Virus record (IMG/VR): IMGVR_UViG_3300025572_000005
Source: a virus
Direction: 5' to 3' (one strand)
DNA: 41,544 bases
The position numbers and the translations under genes were made by a program. Under the pieces are notes generated by a model. That model did not search any database. It was not told the DNA's origin and worked only from the letters and a program-made list of their open reading frames with translations. How positions within the stretch are numbered: the stretch's first letter is position 1; each line of letters starts with the position of its first letter. This document shows, piece after piece, positions 1-30,099 of the stretch.

Positions 1-127
1 AAAGTCGACAAACTTCGCCACAGTTCCACCTCCGTTAAGTGTGAAAAGGGCGAGGCTTTCGCCCCGCCCCGTCTTACTCGCCGCCGCTTACTGGCGTGAT
101 GTCGCCGCTCACCGTGATGGTGACGCT
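1..127. repeat. Terminal direct repeat, identical to 41418-41544 (circular-contig overlap or terminal redundancy)
   Basis: The same 127-nt string (aaagtcgacaaacttcgccacag...gtgatggtgacgct) occurs at both window ends. Gene order is continuous across the junction. Confidence 0.95.
44..65 (-). terminator. Possible intrinsic (attenuating) terminator after the major tail gene
   Basis: The minus strand reads GGGGCGA-AAGCC-TCGCCC followed by TTTT. It lies between the major tail stop (74) and the chaperone start (21, equivalent to 41438). Confidence 0.45.
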
Positions 128-523
128 GTATGTGCCGGGATCGTTTCTTCCACCGCCCGGCATCCCGACGACCGCGGACCCGGCGAACTGGATGCCGTCG
201 CCCATCTTATTCACGTACTGGAATTCGCCGATGGACTCGTGGCCGATCTTGGTCGCGAGCTCGCGCAAGGCCTCGTTGCCGTCCGGCTCCTTGCCCGTCA
301 CGTCGTCGATCACATACTTGATCGTGAGCGTGAACTCGTCGCCCCGTTCGGCCACGATGTGCCGGGCTCGCCCTGCCGCCGAGAAGCTACCAGTGTCGGC
401 GTCCGTTTTGGTCGGGTTGTGCGTGACGGAATCAATGTTCTTGATCTCCTCGAATGCGCCGTTCACCTTGATCTTGAACAGCATTTCTCGTGCGAGGATC
501 TCAACTGCCGCCATTTGGATCAC
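74..523 (-). CDS. Major tail protein
   Basis: 149-aa ORF directly upstream (across the circular junction) of the G/GT chaperones and tape measure. Its size and position after the tail terminator are typical of siphovirus major tail proteins. Confidence 0.7.
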   Translation of the reverse strand: MIQMAAVEILAREMLFKIKVNGAFEEIKNIDSVTHNPTKTDADTGSFSAAGRARHIVAERGDEFTLTIKYVIDDVTGKEPDGNEALRELATKIGHESIGEFQYVNKMGDGIQFAGSAVVGMPGGGRNDPGTYSVTITVSGDITPVSGGE

Positions 524-1298: not shown

Positions 1299-1636
1299 GG
1301 CGTCGCATCCTCGGTGCTTTGCAACAACACCTCAACGTGATTGGTGCGTCCGAAGGGTCTCTGGGGCTGAGCGTCGATCACGGCGTAGCGGCGTCCCTGC
1401 CACTCGCATAGATCGCCTATGCCGATGGGTACATCCCCATCAAAAAAAGCCGTGGCGTTTGCCACGACCTCTTTACCCGTTGAATCGACAGCCTGACGGT
1501 TCCCCGGTTCGATGTACACACCCTTGTAGGGCGGCGCATACGTGGTCGGCGAGCCGTAGATGGGTCCATAGGCACCTGAGCCCAAGTAGGGCGTCACGAC
1601 GACCGTTTCTCGGCGCAGAGAGGCGGGAATCCTCAT
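1295..1636 (-). CDS. Head closure / head-tail adaptor protein (SPP1 gp16-like)
   Basis: Start trimmed to the internal ATG (MRIPASL...), which forms an ATGA overlap with the stop of the upstream gene at 1633. The longer ORF-track N-terminus is Arg-rich and overlaps that gene. Confidence 0.6.
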   Translation of the reverse strand: MRIPASLRRETVVVTPYLGSGAYGPIYGSPTTYAPPYKGVYIEPGNRQAVDSTGKEVVANATAFFDGDVPIGIGDLCEWQGRRYAVIDAQPQRPFGRTNHVEVLLQSTEDATP

Positions 1637-1989
1637 CGCATCGCCACCCCTCGGTAAAGGAGACCGGCGAGGAGGAGATGTCGCCTGGCCCGAGGCGCAA
1701 GCGCAGGAGGCCCGCCGCCGTTGCCGCTTGATGCGTAGGTGGCCGACCAACGCCCGATTGAGAACGACTGGAGCGCTCCCCGAATGTCCGCCTCCTCGCC
1801 GACTTCGAGCCACATCTCGATCTGGGCGCATGTAGCGAGTTTCGTCGCTTCGCTCTGCGTCGCCCTACCCAGAGTGTAGTAGTCGATGTCCTCGGACGCC
1901 CGCTCCAGAAGCCTCTCCGCGTCGTCGGGGAGGTCAGCCAGCGACACGCCGAGGTAGTCAGCGAGGTCTTGCTCAGTTGCATAGGCCAT
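1633..1989 (-). CDS. Head-tail connector protein (gp6 / SPP1 gp15-like)
   Basis: 118 aa. The acidic N-terminus MAYATEQDLADYLGV...LPDDAERLL is characteristic of gp6-like connector proteins. It is the first gene of the neck module. Confidence 0.65.
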   Translation of the reverse strand: MAYATEQDLADYLGVSLADLPDDAERLLERASEDIDYYTLGRATQSEATKLATCAQIEMWLEVGEEADIRGALQSFSIGRWSATYASSGNGGGPPALAPRARRHLLLAGLLYRGVAMR

Positions 1990-1992
1990 GAT

Positions 1993-2874
1993 CTATCCAC
2001 CTCGCAGAGCCGCTAGGGCCGCATCCTTACCGCGGACGCGCCCGCCATCTGGTAACTCGTACCATCCGCCACCCACATGTCGAGGTTCAGCTTCGAGTGT
2101 GGTCTCTCCGGATTCGTTGCCCTTCGGCGGCCACTCGACGCGAGGTGGTTCGAGGCTCGCGAGGTACTGCATTCGTTCTTCGTTCGGGTGGCGGTATACG
2201 TCTCCCGGACTGTAATTTTGTTTGGTGAGCTTGCACCGGAATGGTGCAATCACCTTCGCCTCTAACACAGGTCCTCGCCCTCCTCCCGATAGTGCCGCAT
2301 CGACTAGCCGGCACGTGTAGCACCGATGACACGGCTTGCCGCTTGGCGTAGGATGCCGACACCACCAGCACAATTTCAGCAGATCGGGTGGTGTCGCCCT
2401 CACGACCTCGGCCTTCATCATGTGCTGAATGGGATGCTCCCAGATAAGTTCTCGTTCGCACACCTCGTACGATAGATTCCGATACCGCCGGTGCGCTCGC
2501 TGCATGACAGGACCATCGGGGCCGTCCGCATCGGAGTCCCAATGATCGGTGCGGATCACGTGACGAATGTGCTTGTATTTTGGGTCCGACATCAGAATCC
2601 CGATCCACAGTGCCCAGATGCAATGATCCCGCACGACGTAGCGCACCGTGCCGTAGTCGAACGCGCTTTCGCTGTAGATGAAACGGGTGAGGCCCTGGCC
2701 GCGCATCCAATCGAGGATGCGTTTCACGGCCTGGGCCTCGTATGCGACACGCCCCTCGCGATTGGTGAGGTGGACGTGGTGAACGAGGAGCGTCCTCCCC
2801 TCCAGGAGCGCCCGCCACATGCAGTAGGCAGAGTCAATGCCCCCGGAGAGGAGGAGCAGGGTGTCCGGCGTCAT
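1993..2874 (-). CDS. QueC-like PP-loop ATP pyrophosphatase fused to a C-terminal head-module-type domain
   Basis: PP-loop LLLSGGIDS at residues 6-14. Cys cluster CWWC-x9-CHRCYTCRL resembles the QueC Zn site. The C-terminal ~90 aa (…SPGDVYRHPNEERMQYL…HVGGGWYELPDGGRVRGKDAALAAL) is a distinct domain. Gaps are 6 nt to the capsid gene and 3 nt to the connector gene. Confidence 0.75.
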   Translation of the reverse strand: MTPDTLLLLSGGIDSAYCMWRALLEGRTLLVHHVHLTNREGRVAYEAQAVKRILDWMRGQGLTRFIYSESAFDYGTVRYVVRDHCIWALWIGILMSDPKYKHIRHVIRTDHWDSDADGPDGPVMQRAHRRYRNLSYEVCERELIWEHPIQHMMKAEVVRATPPDLLKLCWWCRHPTPSGKPCHRCYTCRLVDAALSGGGRGPVLEAKVIAPFRCKLTKQNYSPGDVYRHPNEERMQYLASLEPPRVEWPPKGNESGETTLEAEPRHVGGGWYELPDGGRVRGKDAALAALRGG

Positions 2875-2880
2875 GGGCCG

Positions 2881-3912
2881 TTAGACCTCCCCGCCGTTCT
2901 CCCCGCCGTTCTCCCCGCCATTCTCGCCGCCGCCACCGCTACCGAGGGCGACCTTGTGCTTGAACGCGACGATTCGAATCGCCTTGTTCTCGTACACTCG
3001 TTGCCAGTTGGTGCTGGTCGCGAGTTCCGCATTGGTCGGGAACGCGCCGGTGACGGAAGTTTCCGTCCACTTCACACCGCGCGGGTGCAGGATGAATACA
3101 CGCCGGTTGATGAGGTAATCCTCACCCGCAAGCGCGTTTCGATCCGTCTCGGTGAGCGGAACCGCACCCATGGCGTCGCCGTTGCCAAGCGCGATTGCAC
3201 CAGGCCCGAATAGGTACGTGGTCGTCACGCCCGTATCCGTGTCGAACGGGATGCCGTCGTCGACGATCACGCGCTTGCCCATGTAGGTGGGCACGCGGTC
3301 GCTTTGTCCCGCCTCCTGCACGTACTCGATGAGCTGCTGCTTGGCGAGGTAGGCTTCCGTCGCCGAGTGCATGAGGACGCCCGTTAGCTGACCCTTAGCG
3401 TCGCCGAGCTTCTGCGTCGCGTCGATGAATGTGTTGCCATTGATGTACGCGCCATCCCCGGCCTCACTGGAGATGTCGTGGACGTTGCCCGACATCGTAG
3501 CGGCGCCGAAGATGCCGTCGAGGGTCGAGAGCAGGATCGCCTGGAACCTGCGCGCCCAGTATCCGGCCACGAGATCGCCAATGGCTCGCATCGGGTCGTC
3601 GCCCGCCAGCAGGTGCGCCAAGTCGTTGACGCCCCAGGCACGGCCACGAGCCTGCCGACGCGCCACGTCCTGCCCGGCGGTGATCTTGCCCGGCGTCAGC
3701 GCTCCCTGGTCCGAGAGCACCTCATCGTCGCCCGTCAGGTCCTCCCAATAGGGCATGTGCACCAGCGTGCCGCCGCTGTTCGCGAGTCGGTCGAACTCCG
3801 TCGTGTTCGCAATGATCCCCGACTGATACAGCGCCGACAGTTCCATGCTGCGCTGGATCACATACGGGTTAAATACCTCGGGAATGATCACGTCCGAGAT
3901 TTTGGTAGACAT
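2881..3912 (-). CDS. Major capsid protein (HK97 fold)
   Basis: 343 aa, immediately downstream of the scaffold gene. Composition and length are typical. The C-terminus is GSGGGGENGGENGGENGGEV. Confidence 0.85.
   Translation of the reverse strand: MSTKISDVIIPEVFNPYVIQRSMELSALYQSGIIANTTEFDRLANSGGTLVHMPYWEDLTGDDEVLSDQGALTPGKITAGQDVARRQARGRAWGVNDLAHLLAGDDPMRAIGDLVAGYWARRFQAILLSTLDGIFGAATMSGNVHDISSEAGDGAYINGNTFIDATQKLGDAKGQLTGVLMHSATEAYLAKQQLIEYVQEAGQSDRVPTYMGKRVIVDDGIPFDTDTGVTTTYLFGPGAIALGNGDAMGAVPLTETDRNALAGEDYLINRRVFILHPRGVKWTETSVTGAFPTNAELATSTNWQRVYENKAIRIVAFKHKVALGSGGGGENGGENGGENGGEV
2887..2934. repeat. 12-bp tandem repeat (ctccccgccgtt, three copies plus one degenerate) encoding the (GGEN)n tail of the capsid protein
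   Basis: Read directly: ctccccgccgtt ctccccgccgtt ctccccgccatt ctcgccgccgcc. Confidence 0.85.
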
Positions 3913-3919
3913 AACTCAA

Positions 3920-4609
3920 TCACTTTCCTTTCGCTTCTTTCTGCAGACGGGCCGCGAGCTGCGGATTCTCCCGCAGGATGCGACCCTGTTCGGTCAGATT
4001 GAAATGCTCCTTGCTCCACGGGTTACGGTCGATGCCGCCCCCGCCGCCTGTGAATTCACTGCCGCTCTTGCCTGGTGCTTGCGTCCCTTTGAGTTCGGGC
4101 AGGTCGTTGAGCACGGCCTCAAGCGCGGCCTTGATCGCCGCCGCGTCAGGATTGCCTTGCTCGTCCACATCGACGCCCGACAGGTCAGCGAGTTTGAGCG
4201 CATAGGCGATGCGCTCAGGCTTGATACCAAGCGTCACAGCCTGGACGCGCGCCTCGGCGTTGATAAGGCGCTCGTTGGCCGCGGCCTGCGCCTCTTGTGC
4301 CTTGCGTTCGGCCTCCTCTTTTTCGGCCTTGAGCCGCTCCTCGGCGCTCATTTGCTCCTTCTTGCGCGCTTCTTCCGCCTCGGCTTCCCACTGTTTGCGG
4401 GCGCGGGCGAGACGCTTTTCGATCATGGCGTCGATCTCGGCTTGGGTCATCGTTTTAACGTCGCCCTTGCCCTTGTCGCCGCCACCGGCGTTATCTGGAC
4501 CGCCGTCGCCACCGGTGCCGCCGTCATTGCCCCCGGCGTTGGGGTCGCCGCCCTCTCCAGGCTCGGCGAACAGTTGCAGGTTGATCTTGAATCGCTCGTC
4601 GGTTTGCAT
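3920..4609 (-). CDS. Capsid scaffolding protein (DUF4355-like)
   Basis: N-terminal ...INLQLFAEPGEGG motif, Gly-rich linker and a long charged coiled-coil (EAEAEEARKKEQMSAEERLKAEKEEAERK). Sits directly upstream of the capsid gene. Confidence 0.8.
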   Translation of the reverse strand: MQTDERFKINLQLFAEPGEGGDPNAGGNDGGTGGDGGPDNAGGGDKGKGDVKTMTQAEIDAMIEKRLARARKQWEAEAEEARKKEQMSAEERLKAEKEEAERKAQEAQAAANERLINAEARVQAVTLGIKPERIAYALKLADLSGVDVDEQGNPDAAAIKAALEAVLNDLPELKGTQAPGKSGSEFTGGGGGIDRNPWSKEHFNLTEQGRILRENPQLAARLQKEAKGK

Positions 4610-7743: not shown

Positions 7744-8970
7744 CTACGCCGCTCCTTTCTCTGCCACGATCCACGGTCGCCACACGCGTCGCAAACCGCG
7801 CACCGCATAGCGCAAGGCATCACATCCGTGGTCATTCTGCTTCAACGGCTTGTCTTCGCCTCTCACTTGCGCTTTATCGTCCCACACGTACGTGCCCATT
7901 TCTTCGATCAGGCCCGTGCAACTCGCATGAATCTTAAGCCGTCCCGCACCCAAGAGTGTGCTCACGTCCTGGATGCCGTCGATGACGGCGTTGTCGGCGG
8001 GCCACGTGCGAATTCCGTCGTGGCGCAACTGCGTGATAAACGACGCCGCCGACGGGTCGATCCAAATCCTCTGCGGAACGACGTTGCCGAGCCACCGCCG
8101 CAGTTCTGCGCTTAGCTGAGCGTCCGTCAGCCGCCGCCCCTTCGCCTCGCTGTCCCAGCGCCACTCGCGGCAGACGTAGAGCACTCCGTCCTGACCGACG
8201 CCGAGAAGGAGAAACACCGTCGGGTTCGTCGTGCCATAGTCGATGCCGACGTAATAGTGTTGGATCGGCGGGAGCGCCTTTATGACGTGTTGATCGGGGT
8301 CGAACATGTCGTAAACAGTACCTTCGGCGAGGACCCAGAGGCCGAGGATGTAGCGTTTGTACCACAGGCCCGTGTATTCCCGCTTGAGCGACTCGACGTA
8401 GGCTGGGTCGAGGTTTGGATTGTCATCAAGTCCGAAGCTCCAGTGCCGCAGGTCCAGCTCATGCGCCCGGTCGATGAAATCCCGCTTGAGCCAGTGAAAC
8501 GGACTGTCCGGGTTCGTCGTGCCGAAGAAGCGCGCTCCTGGAAGTGACAGGCGCGAGAGCATCATGGCGAAGAAGCTCTCCGGCCACAGCGTGATCTCAT
8601 CGCCGTAGCATCCCACGAGAGTCAGACCCCGGATTTTACCCTCACTGCGCTCGTCGTTCGCACCCGCGAGATAGACCCGTCTCCCGAGGATCATCGCTTC
8701 GCCTTTGCCGGACAACAGGCGAAACTCGTCCTCGTCCAACATCTCGGCAATGGGGTCGAGGATGTTTCGCTTGAGCGTACGCTCTGTCTTTCCGACCATG
8801 AGCAATTCGCCTGGAGGCCCATGCGCGACAAAATCGAGCCACCGGATGATACTCGCGACCGTCTTGCCCGAACGCACCGAACCATGCCAGATGTTGAGTC
8901 GCGCGTCTGCCTCAAGGATCGAGCGCCGTTGCTTACCCGTCGGTAGCGCCAACGTCGGCATCGGCCTCAT
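7744..8970 (-). CDS. terL: Terminase large subunit (PBSX / Terminase_3-like)
   Basis: Walker A GSVRSGKT, Walker B-like VGCYGDEIT, C-terminal nuclease region with IDYGTTNP and NDHGCDALRY. Confidence 0.92.
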   Translation of the reverse strand: MRPMPTLALPTGKQRRSILEADARLNIWHGSVRSGKTVASIIRWLDFVAHGPPGELLMVGKTERTLKRNILDPIAEMLDEDEFRLLSGKGEAMILGRRVYLAGANDERSEGKIRGLTLVGCYGDEITLWPESFFAMMLSRLSLPGARFFGTTNPDSPFHWLKRDFIDRAHELDLRHWSFGLDDNPNLDPAYVESLKREYTGLWYKRYILGLWVLAEGTVYDMFDPDQHVIKALPPIQHYYVGIDYGTTNPTVFLLLGVGQDGVLYVCREWRWDSEAKGRRLTDAQLSAELRRWLGNVVPQRIWIDPSAASFITQLRHDGIRTWPADNAVIDGIQDVSTLLGAGRLKIHASCTGLIEEMGTYVWDDKAQVRGEDKPLKQNDHGCDALRYAVRGLRRVWRPWIVAEKGAA

Positions 8971-9364
8971 CCCCCCGCAGGCGTTGCATTAGCTCGCTGA
9001 TTGCACCGCGCCGCTTGCCGCCGTCGTCGTCCTCCTGGCGGCGCTTATCCAAGAGCACCGCCAGTGCCATCGCTAGTTGCTGCAATTCGCCAGGTTTTGC
9101 CAGAATCTCAAGCATCGCGTCGGCCTTGTCAAGCGCCTTGTCAATCAGGCGAATCCGCTCGGCGCGTGCGTAAGTGATCCGGGCCTCGGTCGCTTTTTTC
9201 GGCTCGGCAACATTGCTCTTGATCCCTTCGACCTTCGCAATCCGGTTGATGGTGGACACATGACGCCCGAACTTGCGAGCGATTGCTCCCTGCGACATCT
9301 CGCCACTCTTGAGGGCTTCGATGATCTGTTGGCGCTCTTTCTCGCTCACAGGCTTCGGACGCAT
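8933..9364 (-). CDS. terS: Terminase small subunit (HTH-containing)
   Basis: HTH SQGAIARKFGRHVSTINRIAK. Overlaps terL by 38 nt. ATG at 9364 is preceded by GGAAGGTGG. The ORF track extends to GTG 9373. Confidence 0.7.
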   Translation of the reverse strand: MRPKPVSEKERQQIIEALKSGEMSQGAIARKFGRHVSTINRIAKVEGIKSNVAEPKKATEARITYARAERIRLIDKALDKADAMLEILAKPGELQQLAMALAVLLDKRRQEDDDGGKRRGAISELMQRLRGDEADADVGATDG

Positions 9365-27716: not shown

Positions 27717-27835
27717 CAGTCATCACACCCTATGCAGCGCACCTTCCGTCCGGTCGTCCAGCCGCATCGGCGACACAGCAAAGCGCCAAGGTGGACCGAA
27801 AGCGGATAGCGGCACGTCGGGCATTTTGGGATCAT
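27716..27835 (-). CDS. 39-aa Zn-ribbon protein
   Basis: MIPKCPTCRYPLSVHLGALLCRRCGW.... ATGA overlap with the upstream gene. The ORF-track N-terminus is discarded. Confidence 0.45.
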   Translation of the reverse strand: MIPKCPTCRYPLSVHLGALLCRRCGWTTGRKVRCIGCDD

Positions 27836-28149
27836 TCTGCATCCATCCCCGACTCCATCGGCAATCCCCACCAGCTGCGGCGCACCATCTGCGCGATGAT
27901 GCCGTAGTTTGCGAGGTCGAGCCATGCGTCGTCGATGCTCTCGTGATTGGGCGTTCGATTGCCCGTGATGAGATGCTTGAGCCGTTCGAGTTTGTCGCTC
28001 GCGCGGACGAGTACGCCTAGCTCCCCGAAGGCGGCGATGTTGCCGGGGCCGTAGTCGGCCTGTTTCGAGACCATCACCGCCCTCATCTCTGCGAGGATGG
28101 TATCGAGAGCGTCTTCAAATGTGCGCGGCTTCGATTCGGCCGTTCTCAC
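27832..28149 (-). CDS. MazG-like all-alpha NTP-pyrophosphohydrolase-fold protein (DUF1599-like)
   Basis: KQADYGPGNIAAFGELGVLVRASDKLERLKHL ... ESIDDAWLDLANYG pattern. GTG 28149 is preceded by GGAGGTGG 7 nt upstream. ATG 28170 is an alternative start. Confidence 0.55.
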   Translation of the reverse strand: MRTAESKPRTFEDALDTILAEMRAVMVSKQADYGPGNIAAFGELGVLVRASDKLERLKHLITGNRTPNHESIDDAWLDLANYGIIAQMVRRSWWGLPMESGMDAE

Positions 28150-28465
28150 CGTCGATCCACCTCCACTCATAGACGGGTATCCCACATCGTTTCGCTTCCT
28201 CAACCTCTCCGCGTGTCCCGACAGAAGACTCCCACCCAGGGACGAGCACGACAAGATCGCAGCGTCGAAGAATCTCAAGATCGCCCTTGAGCCACATTTC
28301 ATCGGGGCAGGTGCCGCCGAAGAATGCGGTATTCTTGTGCGGACAGATGACGGCGTACCCGAGCTTCCAAAGCATCACCGCTACCCGTTCTGCCGCTTCG
28401 ATGTTGCACTTGACACCCCACTCGGTCGGCGCTCGATACGGGCCTGCAACGTATGCGACCTTCAC
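28115..28465 (-). CDS. DUF4406 / nucleoside 2-deoxyribosyltransferase-like protein
   Basis: VKVAYVAGPYR...ICPH...CDLVVLVPGWESSVGTRGEVEEAKRCGIPVY. GTG 28465 has a GTGA overlap and GGAGGTG upstream. Confidence 0.68.
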   Translation of the reverse strand: MKVAYVAGPYRAPTEWGVKCNIEAAERVAVMLWKLGYAVICPHKNTAFFGGTCPDEMWLKGDLEILRRCDLVVLVPGWESSVGTRGEVEEAKRCGIPVYEWRWIDGENGRIEAAHI

Positions 28466-29234: not shown

Positions 29235-29699
29235 TCACACGCCCCGCCTCCTCGGCGTGCCCTCCACGCCGGCGTAGAACAGGTGCGCGCTGTCCCACGG
29301 CACATGGATGAGCTGCGCGCCCACCGTCCATTCAGGAGGCTTGATCGTGCGCGTGTGGTAGTGTGTCGGGAACGGTCCCTTGGTCCCGAACAACTCGTGA
29401 AGGTCGCGGTCGCGCAGGTGGTTCACGACGAGATGGGCCGCCGCGACGCACAGCGGCCATACGTCCGGGCAGGATTTTTCGGCCTGAAGGATCACTTCAC
29501 GGTTCGGATCGTCTTCGTTCCAGCACGAGAACTGCCACGGCTTGCGGCAAACGCTGATCCAGTCAATTCCCCACCAGCCCGGACGCAAGACGCGTTCTCG
29601 GATCACGGCCCCGACCGCAACCATGTCGAGGAACCCGCACCCGCGGGCCTCCCCGCATATCGTGCGAGCAACGATGTCGACGTTTGGATCAACGGCCAT
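29235..29699 (-). CDS. Endolysin, SleB/CwlJ-like cell wall hydrolase (Hydrolase_2)
   Basis: ARTICGEARG...AVGAVIRERV...PWQFSCWN. The start is set at ATG 29699 (MAVDPN...), overlapping the holin end by 11 nt. Confidence 0.85.
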   Translation of the reverse strand: MAVDPNVDIVARTICGEARGCGFLDMVAVGAVIRERVLRPGWWGIDWISVCRKPWQFSCWNEDDPNREVILQAEKSCPDVWPLCVAAAHLVVNHLRDRDLHELFGTKGPFPTHYHTRTIKPPEWTVGAQLIHVPWDSAHLFYAGVEGTPRRRGV

Positions 29700-30099
29700 G
29701 CGGCGTTCCCTCCCGGTCGCGCAGTACCGCAAGTGCATCTCGCAAGCGCTCTGGAATCGGCACACCGACTTCGCCTAGGTTCTCGACGATGCTCAGTGCC
29801 TCGTTGCCTATGTACCACCACACGGCCATTGTCCGCAGGATCGGGTCGCCCAGTCCTCCTGTCTGGTCGATGATGTTGCAGAGGGCAATGATAGCGAACA
29901 TGCCTACCTTTCGTGCAATTCCCCGGCGCCCCACTTCCGAGGAAAGGCGTCGTCCCACCCATGCGGCTGCCCACCCGCTGGCGTAGTCGATACACGCCAA
30001 CACCACCAGCGCCGTCAGCACGGCGTCCCACCCTCCCCACAGGTACGTGGCCGCCATGCCGATCGCGGCGAGAAGCGCCTTGACCGTCGATTCGTCCAT
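29689..30099 (-). CDS. Holin (toxin-secretion/phage-lysis holin family, Phage_holin_4_1-like)
   Basis: Three hydrophobic segments. ...CIDYASGW...LSSEVGRRGIARKVGMF...YIGNEALSIVENLGEVGVPIP. Confidence 0.8.
   Translation of the reverse strand: MDESTVKALLAAIGMAATYLWGGWDAVLTALVVLACIDYASGWAAAWVGRRLSSEVGRRGIARKVGMFAIIALCNIIDQTGGLGDPILRTMAVWWYIGNEALSIVENLGEVGVPIPERLRDALAVLRDREGTPHGR

Follow-up and report, generated by a model that had tools for sequence, protein, structure and literature searches.

Two members of the QueC family of PP-loop enzymes, Cap9 of the type IV systems for antiphage signaling based on cyclic oligonucleotides (CBASS) and QatC, modify proteins (PMC13329287). QatC (9y02_B) has a remodelled pocket and acts on a partner protein encoded beside it (PMC13329287). 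Phages also carry QueC-like genes, among them Muddy gp16, FF47_16 and DS6A gp2 (PHROG 1550), and these QueC singletons have so far been without an assigned function (PMC6884629). Here we examined an open reading frame (ORF) of this kind in a virus genome of 41,544 nucleotides (IMG/VR record IMGVR_UViG_3300025572_000005; "the window" is this whole stretch of DNA), where a QueC-like enzyme is fused to a small head protein and encoded between the genes for the major capsid protein and a head-tail adaptor. The gene family is known but unexplained; what is new here is its link to acidic, glycine-rich tails at the C-termini of virion proteins, found in 15 of the 16 enzyme-bearing phage lineages that we scored.

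The window enzyme shares some features with each of the described systems and lacks others. Cap9 (9nto_B), which modifies a protein, has in common with it a minimal QueC fold of ∼190 amino acids, the PP-loop and a C-terminal zinc cluster. However, Cap9 keeps the motifs Y/FxQ(x)5E, RN and H(x)4YxDC (PMC13329287), which the clade of the window enzyme does not have, and the sequence similarity between Cap9 and the clade is confined to the PP-loop. The Cap9 gene lies beside those for a CD-NTase and Cap10 in a bacterial defence operon, whereas the window gene lies in a virion operon without them. QueC itself (3bl5, 2pg3) shows the same fold and the same order of PP-loop, conserved lysine and four-cysteine zinc site, but is only 16–19% identical to the window enzyme, which has no queD or queE neighbours in the window. 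QatC is a protein of ∼400 amino acids with N- and C-terminal extensions, motifs of its own, a C(x)19CGxC variant of the zinc site and qatA, qatB and qatD as neighbours, all of which are absent in the window. The phage singletons are true homologs that share the motifs of the clade; they are free-standing proteins of ∼185–210 amino acids, without the fusion to a small head-module protein that is seen in the window. We therefore classify the window gene, by sequence, as a fused-form member of the phage QueC-like singleton clade. The features of the locus that bear on what follows are these:

1993..2874, minus strand: ORF for the fusion of a QueC-like protein with a small head protein, 293 amino acids (phrog_1550 at residues 1–195, phrog_6480 at residues 203–290; AlphaFold2 predicted local distance difference test, pLDDT, 92.5)
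2278..2874, minus strand: predicted N-terminal PP-loop ATP-pyrophosphatase domain of the QueC family, residues 1–199 (Foldseek; clade profile against the PDB)
2830..2847, minus strand: PP-loop SGGIDS (S10–S15), the motif for binding the alpha/beta-phosphates of ATP (clade alignments)
2311..2361, minus strand: zinc-site cysteines C172-x9-C182-x2-C185-x2-C188 (clade alignments; aligned with C(x)8CxxCxxC of QueC)
2266..2287, minus strand: domain junction, where an in-frame GTG (V203) that may serve as an internal start for the free C-domain comes after Shine-Dalgarno-like GGGAGGAGGG
1996..2268, minus strand: C-terminal domain, residues 203–293, with the motif GGGWYELPDG..GK..A, a small protein of the post-capsid slot (phrog_6480)
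2881..3912, minus strand: major capsid protein gene, 343 amino acids (phrog_247, E = 2.8e-115; Pfam Gp13-like)
2884..2946, minus strand: capsid C-terminal tail LGSGGGGENGGENGGENGGEV, residues 323–343, the proposed substrate or recognition element (Tandem Repeats Finder; homolog comparison)
1633..1989, minus strand: head-tail adaptor gene (phrog_541, E = 1.5e-28)
3920..4609, minus strand: scaffolding protein gene, an upstream member of the same late transcription unit (phrog_2303; Pfam DUF4355)

An earlier reading of the window, made from its letters without database searches (the sequence-only reading), had placed the fusion ORF on the strand of the head genes and tightly between two of them, and this is borne out (ORF 1993..2874, capsid 2881..3912, adaptor 1633..1989): 6 nucleotides separate the capsid gene from the fusion ORF and 3 nucleotides separate the fusion ORF from the adaptor gene. 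Its proposal that the enzyme is co-transcribed with virion genes also fits, as no terminator-like or promoter-like site was found on the minus strand from the scaffold gene through the capsid and QueC-like genes to the adaptor gene. The absence of such internal sites is consistent with one late transcript that would include the virion genes.

The window capsid protein ends in GSGGGG(ENGG)3EV, encoded with a 12-bp tandem repeat that Tandem Repeats Finder places at 2887–2932 (3.8 copies, 91% matches). The repeat-encoded capsid tail recognized in the sequence-only reading is thus confirmed, with a slight shift from the 2887–2934 given there. The capsid protein is the only one in the window phage with a long tail; its major tail protein (74–523, minus strand) ends in ..TPVSGGE, a minimal Gly-Glu end that lies below our tail criterion.

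For the comparison across phages we scored 16 lineages that have an enzyme of the clade and a visible end of a major virion gene. In 15 of them the major capsid protein, the major tail protein or both end in a Gly/Glu or Gly/Asp tail, the types being GGGGEGEGEGE, (ENGG)3EV and GGGDDD..DDDAI. Tails are seen in the window, L006, L014, L025, L010, L015, the mycobacteriophages Muddy, FF47 and DS6A, and PIS136, as well as in L268, L270, L272, L276 and L277 (the Gly/Asp version) and L023 (short tails), the L numbers denoting loci in our collection. Individual tails read as follows:

L014, capsid: ..GGGSGEGEGEGEEI
L025, capsid: ..GGGGGEGEGEGEGEGEGESE
L025, tail tube: ..DDEGEGEGEGEGEGEGE
L006, capsid: ..DDGNGEDNGGEEV
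L010, upstream ORF: ..GGGEGGESEGGETE
Muddy, capsid gp9: ..GGGSGEGEGESE
Muddy, tail tube gp15: ..GGGGEGEGEGE
FF47, capsid and tail tube: same tail type as Muddy
DS6A, capsid gp11: ..GGEGEGEGEGEGEGE
DS6A, tail tube gp16: ..GGGEGEGEGEGEGE

Further tailed cases are PIS_019 of PIS136, the tail tube of L015, L268, L270 and L272, the last with three tailed proteins. By their PHROGs matches the tailed ORFs are major head proteins (phrog_777, 10, 422 and 247) and major tail proteins (phrog_792, 885 and 476), the remainder belonging to one more family of the head module, phrog_779. In the window, L014, L025, L010, L276, L277, Muddy/FF47, L268 and L272 a tailed gene is followed immediately by the enzyme gene, and in DS6A the latter lies 7–10 kb from the tailed genes. 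The style of the tail is related to the form of the enzyme: fusion-type enzymes occur with tails ending in E/D-x-V/I and free-standing enzymes with tails ending in ..GE or ..SE, and the two most divergent fusion enzymes are paired with Gly/Asp tails (..GNGGGDDDTGGGDDDSSDDDAI and ..GSGGGDDDASDDDTI). The cores of the tailed capsid proteins fall into at least 5 sequence families without similarity detectable by BLAST. The window and L006 illustrate this, their enzymes being 75% identical and their capsids unrelated, with both tails ending in ..NGGE(E)V. We found no description of an enzyme-tail link in the literature on Muddy, DS6A and FF47, on polyglutamylation or on virion glycosylation. A candidate for a further conserved partner, PIS_014 of Saccharomonospora phage PIS 136 (L003, 6702–7451, adjacent to the QueC-like gene and annotated with a "cyanophycin synthetase" domain), was rejected because it has no homolog in L268, L270, L272 or L023. 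The L023 locus has two tandem QueC-like paralogs at 8001–9214 (189 and 215 amino acids, the second with E = 1e-62 against the hidden Markov model (HMM) of the clade) in a structural module of PIS136 type, in which the virion proteins have only short acidic ends (..ENGGGE and ..GESEE).

We used homologs of three of the tailed capsid proteins as controls. Neither a tail nor the enzyme is present at any of the 43 loci with homologs of the window capsid (43–87% identity), and the full-length homologs terminate with ..KHK(V/I/L)A, at the very point from which the tail extends in the window protein. Among 56 loci with Muddy capsid homologs either feature was seen in Muddy only, and among 56 with L006 capsid homologs in the index contig only. 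Counting the evaluable loci, 26 + 39 + 49 = 114 have neither tail nor enzyme, and when 98 control loci (1.2 Mb) were scanned without bias in all six frames, only 1 of 6,352 ORFs qualified as tailed. Fisher's exact test for 15/16 against 0/114 gives p = 9e-19, or 8e-16 counting three borderline tails, values that overstate the evidence because the lineages are not fully independent.

Comparison of close relatives thus shows, for three capsid families, a joint gain or loss of enzyme and tails. In the window a single block, made up of the 21-codon tail and the enzyme gene, lies between the conserved capsid end and the adaptor gene. The nearest relatives (capsid identity 85–87%) read ..KHKVA-stop, followed by ∼190 nucleotides with a tiny basic ORF and then a nearly identical adaptor N-terminus; in L165 and L167 the adaptor starts almost exactly as it does in the window, which marks the downstream edge of the inserted block. 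As to the survey of relatives suggested in the sequence-only reading, other phages do have enzyme genes in post-capsid or post-tail positions, and the nearest capsid relatives (85–87%) are without one. In L164–L167 the post-capsid slot (e.g. L164, 7970–8164) is occupied by a basic ORF of ∼60 amino acids (MGLTGFNLRRR..KKPKRRKREGDG..) that replaces both the C-domain protein and the enzyme, which suggests that this slot is a hot spot for gene replacement.

The assignment of the enzyme domain is based on motifs, profiles and a predicted structure. The sequence-only reading had noted the PP-loop LLLSGGIDS and a cysteine cluster matching the QueC zinc site; both are present (the latter as C169-W-W-C172-x9-C182-x2-C185-x2-C188) and conserved in alignments of the clade. 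S10, G11, G12, D14, S15, C172, C182, C185 and C188 are invariant in a 22-sequence alignment of the N-terminal domain, and in a 28-sequence full-length alignment the four zinc cysteines are invariant and the PP-loop residues at least 90% conserved. The domain matches phrog_1550 ("QueC-like") over residues 1–195 with E = 5.5e-29. The Pfam family QueC (PF06508) is matched with 28.8 bits against a gathering score of 22 (E = 1.1e-6), over residues 6–53 only, that is, the PP-loop, and the NCBIfam QueC equivalog TIGR00364 gives 13.1 bits against a cut-off of 150.3 and so stays below threshold. The AlphaFold2 model (pLDDT 92.5) has a beta-alpha-beta core, for which the best Foldseek match is Cap9 9nto_B (E = 1e-7, TM-score 0.69 on the target) and the next B. 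subtilis QueC 3bl5; YcfA, TtuA, MnmA and QatC 9y02_B (E = 8e-4) are further matches, and all structural matches are PP-loop enzymes. When the clade profile was compared with the PDB it matched QueC 2pg3 (E = 2e-6), Cap9 (E = 3e-5), 3bl5, to which the profile aligned over its full length, and weakly the Dph6-type archaeal homolog PH1257 (E = 0.04). Searching the two halves of the protein separately by HMM and structure, as had been proposed with the sequence-only reading, thus yields a QueC-family fold for the enzyme domain, and for the C-terminal domain phrog_6480 with no structural match.

The clade retains SGGxDS, the conserved lysine K154 and the four zinc cysteines, with a zinc-site spacing of x9 that is one residue longer than the x8 of QueC. 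The substrate motifs of QueC are replaced. At the position of YxQxHxxE the clade has HHVHLxNxEGRxxxE, in which R42 and E46 are the only matching residues, Y, Q and H being absent; the VPxRN loop reads V-V-R-D-H in the window enzyme, so that RN is not conserved; and the YPDC loop reads H-W-D-S..G118-P-D120-G (HxDS..GxD in the clade), with loss of the tyrosine. The canonical signature was defined by Libby et al. 2026, and Y35, R99 and Y131 are essential in E. coli QueC (PMC13329287). Motifs shared within the clade are HHVHL, EGR..E, CWWCRRP and CHxCxTC, all invariant or nearly so. Because the substrate motifs are replaced while PP-loop, lysine and zinc cysteines are kept, we consider that the window enzyme, judged from its sequence, is a QueC-family PP-loop ATP pyrophosphatase with a remodelled substrate pocket, and not QueC, Cap9 or QatC. 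It is 42–46% identical to Muddy gp16, DS6A gp2 and PIS_015. A word-indexed search gave 37 relatives and an exhaustive profile search 394 representative clusters at E ≤ 1e-30; in the latter the clade consists mostly of free-standing proteins of ∼200 amino acids, most members being unfused.

On these grounds we propose that the enzyme acts on the acidic Gly-rich tails of virion proteins as an ATP-dependent modifier of carboxylates. In its broader form the proposal is of a two-part virion-surface system, in which the enzyme is paired with tails of (GE)n, (ENGG)n or GGGDDD type on the capsid protein, the tail tube protein or a third head protein, the pair moves between otherwise unrelated modules, and the tails would undergo an ATP-dependent covalent modification, a viral counterpart of the tubulin tail code, with a cellular branch doing the equivalent on secreted RTX (repeats-in-toxin) proteins. 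We give either form a probability of about 45%. The enzyme would be made together with the virion proteins, its target being the short, flexible, acidic Gly-rich tail of the major capsid protein and, in related phages, also that of the major tail-tube protein and of a third head protein. ATP would be bound on the SGGxDS loop, a carboxylate of the tail (a Glu/Asp side chain or the C-terminal alpha-carboxylate) would then be adenylated, and ammonia or another amine would resolve the acyl-adenylate to an amide, altering the charge or chemistry of the tail. The tail as substrate and the carboxylate-activation chemistry are both what we infer, the chemistry by analogy with the first half-reaction of QueC, with the protein-directed activity of Cap9 and QatC and with diphthine-ammonia ligase and the lasso cyclases. 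The suggestion of the sequence-only reading that carboxylates of the capsid tail may be the target now has strong comparative support (15/16 lineages against 0/114 controls); a small-molecule substrate, its other option, is the less likely of the two. In HK97-fold capsid proteins, C-terminal extensions can reach the outer surface at the centre of the hexon (Jabs preprint), and therefore the tails are probably exposed on the surface of the virion.

Several enzymes provide precedents of different kinds. The diphthine-ammonia ligase Dph6 and the asparagine-synthetase-like lasso cyclases use a PP-loop to adenylate a protein or peptide carboxylate, which is then converted to an amide; here the likeness is mechanistic only, as they belong to other PP-loop subfamilies and are without the zinc cluster. 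The C-terminal tails of tubulin are Glu/Gly-rich and are modified by the TTLL glutamylases and glycylases, which are ATP-grasp ligases. Tubulin likewise combines an encoded flexible C-terminal tail with a dedicated enzyme, but the enzymes are unrelated and the analogy is one of function only. The virion proteins of mycobacteriophages are modified by phage-encoded enzymes, with "extensive glycosylation" (PMC12582341); those glycosyltransferases are likewise unrelated to the window enzyme and offer a functional analogy only.

A number of observations weigh against this proposal, besides the incomplete independence of the lineages. The case for a modification of the tails is drawn here from sequence comparison and a predicted structure. 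Cap9 and QatC activate a small-molecule carboxylate, that of 7-carboxy-7-deazaguanine (CDG), which is attacked by a protein amine (PMC13329287), so that activation of a protein carboxylate, as proposed here, would be of reversed polarity. There is one clear exception to the association of enzyme and tail, namely L265 (10001–11544 of a 60.6-kb Logan contig, SRR30933959), which encodes a clade member of 417 amino acids that is 46% identical to the window enzyme and has a long unrelated C-terminal extension; its gene overlaps the start of a gene for Pfam Acb5, an anti-CBASS nuclease, and in this phage the capsid protein, of HK97 type, ends without an acidic tail. In L269, an 82-kb phage, no tail was found in the 10 kb flanking each side of the enzyme gene, and none was seen in relatives below 33% identity. 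In the other direction, 13 of 16 loci with ORF ends of (GE)4 or longer (three of them giant-virus contigs) and 8 of 8 with GGEGEGE ends had no clade gene within the surrounding 1.6–14 kb, and L344 (IMGVR_UViG_3300010327_000030) has a Gly-rich acidic capsid end, ..PEEPDEGEGGEGGGGEGGGSGS, without the enzyme. From the sequences searched it is therefore not established that a tail implies the enzyme.

The reverse searches for GGEGEGE-stop and (GE)4-stop did recover Muddy, DS6A and L272, and a reverse search with generic (GE)4 DNA was uninformative, 78 of its 80 matches being internal low-complexity sequence or in another frame. The asymmetry, in which the enzyme needs tails and the tails do not need the enzyme, is what would be expected if the tail is a substrate or docking element. 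Two further capsid homologs without enzyme, L217 and L236, have Gly-rich, mildly acidic ends (..AAEDEGGEG and ..AAGGAGAGE). The ends of L344, L217 and L236 may be intermediates, or tails served by another enzyme.

Other explanations have to be weighed against the same evidence. The gene could be a moron, with an anti-defence role or a small-molecule enzyme as product that has nothing to do with virion proteins, its association with tails being indirect, for example through shared ecological or host adaptation. This would account for the differing slots in which the gene is found (following the capsid gene or the major tail gene, ahead of terminase in DS6A, beside Acb5 in L265), for the prevalence of free-standing ∼200-amino-acid proteins in the clade and for acidic tails without a detected enzyme. 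We nevertheless regard it as unlikely, in view of the joint gain and loss of enzyme and tails in three capsid families, the contiguity of the enzyme gene with the tail-coding segment in most lineages and the way in which the style of the tail tracks the enzyme subtype. Nor is there a defence-model match beyond the PP-loop: PADLOC gives only a weak PP-loop match to its QueC model (E = 1.4e-4), and the Pfam scan of window ORFs found no KAP ATPase, TatD, CD-NTase or TGT family. The anti-defence variant, as far as it draws on adjacency to Acb5, has a single locus, L265, behind it; the paper on the anti-CBASS function of Acb5 (bioRxiv 10.1101/2025.07.12.664507) makes no mention of QueC. If tails are indeed the target, the adenylated carboxylate might instead be attacked by a lysine of a neighbouring subunit, giving isopeptide bonds that would make the lattices of capsid and tail tube more stable. 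PP-loop lasso-peptide cyclases of the asparagine-synthetase-like kind form such bonds, the enzyme-tail association applies equally, and both tailed proteins polymerise into lattices. In one mycobacteriophage capsid of solved structure, moreover, six C-terminal extensions converge at the hexon centre (Jabs preprint). However, repetitive tails of variable length (a 12-bp slippage repeat; 3 to 8 GE units) resemble flexible surface bristles more than an exactly positioned site for a cross-link, and no conserved acceptor lysine was identified, so that we consider cross-linking a rather improbable outcome.

The two remaining explanations keep closer to the chemistry of described QueC-family enzymes. 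In one, host CDG would be adenylated and joined to an amine of a virion protein, such as its N-terminus, as in deazaguanylation by Cap9 and QatC, with the tail serving as a docking handle. In structure the enzyme comes closest to Cap9 bound to the partner that it modifies (9nto_B), QatC is reported to use CDG although it is without the canonical QueC pocket motifs (PMC13329287), and the enzyme-tail association is compatible with a docking role. Several features tell against it: YxQxHxxE, VPxRN and YPDC are replaced by HHVHLxNxEGRxxxE, RDH and HxDS..GxD, the phage has neither a Cap10- or TGT-like partner nor a CDG pathway, and the tails contain no amine. Mycobacteria are not known to have queuosine biosynthesis, and if they lack it Muddy and DS6A would have no supply of CDG. 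We think deazaguanylation improbable to much the same degree as cross-linking. In the other, the enzyme would be a canonical QueC that makes preQ0 from host CDG, for queuosine or for 7-deazaguanine modification of DNA, as the Pfam QueC score above the gathering threshold (28.8 bits against 22) and the annotation of homologs in public records as "QueC-like queuosine biosynthesis" might suggest. We rejected a canonical QueC and a 7-deazaguanine DNA-modification pathway on the grounds of the missing substrate motifs, the failed equivalog score (13 bits against 150) and the lack of pathway genes, and give this explanation hardly any credence. The Pfam match covers the PP-loop only, the residues essential in E. 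coli QueC (the contexts of Y35, R99 and Y131) are not conserved, and the Muddy homolog had already been set aside as "another subfamily" by Hutinet et al. 2019 (PMC6884629). As to the pathway, a Pfam scan of ∼61 called window ORFs (8 of the head module and 53 others) found no GTP cyclohydrolase I, PTPS/QueD, radical-SAM/QueE, TGT/DpdA or QueF family, which agrees with the sequence-only reading that no FolE, QueD, QueE, DpdA or TGT homolog is encoded, and the annotated neighbourhoods of related loci that we looked up showed no linkage to queD, queE, folE or dpdA.

Should the tails be modified as we propose, this would be a new class of post-translational modification of virion proteins, and protein modification by the QueC family would be extended from bacterial immunity to virus particles, possibly with reversed polarity. 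It would also give a specific role to a phage family that had been noticed and then set aside as uninterpretable "QueC singletons" (PMC6884629). Carriers of the enzyme include Muddy, used therapeutically against Mycobacterium abscessus, and the tuberculosis phage DS6A, both with tails on capsid and tail tube, and a surface modification could matter for how stable therapeutic phages are, how they adsorb or how the immune system recognises them. Since genetic tools work in Muddy, the hypothesis is directly testable.

The C-terminal part of the window protein has a separate history. The sequence-only reading took its last ∼90 amino acids for a small protein of the head module, and we agree: residues 203–290 match phrog_6480 (E = 1.8e-18), and homologs encoded by a gene of their own follow immediately upon the capsid gene in Bacillus phages B13, Athena and phage 1, in Parageobacillus phage NIIg3.2 and in the window-capsid relatives L172 and L181. 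The further statement that the enzyme is fused to a capsid-associated domain holds only in part, the association being one of gene position in the post-capsid slot, and no structural match was obtained. Foldseek gave nothing usable for this domain, the best matches being E = 0.95 in the PDB and E = 0.02 in BFVD, the latter to small uncharacterised phage proteins (DUF7443/DUF7210). The label "Arc-like repressor" of phrog_6480 (Bacillus phage 1 gp22; L011, 3998–4258) is unsupported by gene position and looks wrong, because every member examined is found immediately behind the major capsid gene in a late operon. Two fusion members have a Rho_N/HeH-like motif instead of the terminal GGGWYELPDG..GK motif.

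All fusions that we examined as DNA have a Shine-Dalgarno-like purine tract 8–14 nucleotides before an in-frame ATG or GTG. At the window junction this reads gggaggagggcgaggacct GTG, the GTG being V203 at 2266–2268, and a purine tract with in-frame ATG is also found in L006/L007, L014, L028 and L029. Since both the Shine-Dalgarno sequence and the start codon are retained, the Gly-rich linker at the junction appears to be a translated ribosome-binding site. In the window the enzyme ORF would thus have become fused in frame, through this site, to the small slot protein; we take the junction sequences to mean that the fusion arose through loss of a stop codon, and the small C-domain protein is probably still made separately from the internal start. 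Three apparently free-standing close homologs of the C-domain (P0039–P0041) are gene calls that start at the internal Met. Of the two whose contigs were examined, the call in L028 is an artefact, the ORF running in frame off the contig end as a fusion, and that in L029 is probably the same, with a junction and internal ATG 63 nucleotides from the contig end.

A scan of reference genomes revealed cellular relatives that are ∼30% identical and have the clade motifs, mostly in Alphaproteobacteria. These loci (L021 and L031–L042) are from Sneathiella, Denitrobaculum, Hyphomicrobiales, Rhodobacteraceae and one metagenome-assembled genome of Flavobacteriaceae. In 10 of 12 loci the genes adjoin an HlyB-type ATP-binding cassette (ABC) transporter and HlyD, and several also have an HlyC-like acyltransferase and a giant RTX protein. 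The QueC-like genes are present in 1–3 tandem copies, often two or three, or as fused ORFs of 450–640 amino acids. We looked for acidic tails in the cellular RTX loci and found none. By its gene content this setting, which resembles an hlyCABD operon, is that of an accessory enzyme acting on a secreted protein, and the relatives linked to RTX and type I secretion may thus carry out an undescribed modification of RTX proteins, which would be a second kind, as yet unexplored and directed at secreted proteins. P0036, a distant relative from a cellular genome (32% identity; L022, 6229–8672), lies two genes downstream of a 5-hydroxymethyldeoxyuridine (5-hmdU) DNA kinase helical-domain protein (PF18723), a context unlike that of either the phage or the RTX loci.

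As a whole, the window represents the full genome, circularly permuted, of a temperate siphophage (41.5 kb, 61% G+C). It encodes an integrase, helix-turn-helix proteins of cI/Cro type, an ImmA-like peptidase, DnaB, a single-stranded-DNA-binding protein (SSB), RusA, an N6/N4 methylase, a holin and a SleB-type hydrolase. A match to DUF1599, "nucleotide modification associated domain 1", was dismissed as marginal (24.8 bits against a cut-off of 25); it is in an unrelated ORF of 156 amino acids (27832–28302, minus strand) between the lysis genes and the integrase gene. The lysis genes themselves (29235–30099, minus strand) are of Firmicute type, with Phage_holin_4_1 and a SleB-like Hydrolase_2. 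Phages of Bacillus and Parageobacillus have free-standing homologs of the C-domain, yet the enzyme has its named relatives in actinophages; with its 61% G+C, the window phage may have a high-G+C Firmicute as host.

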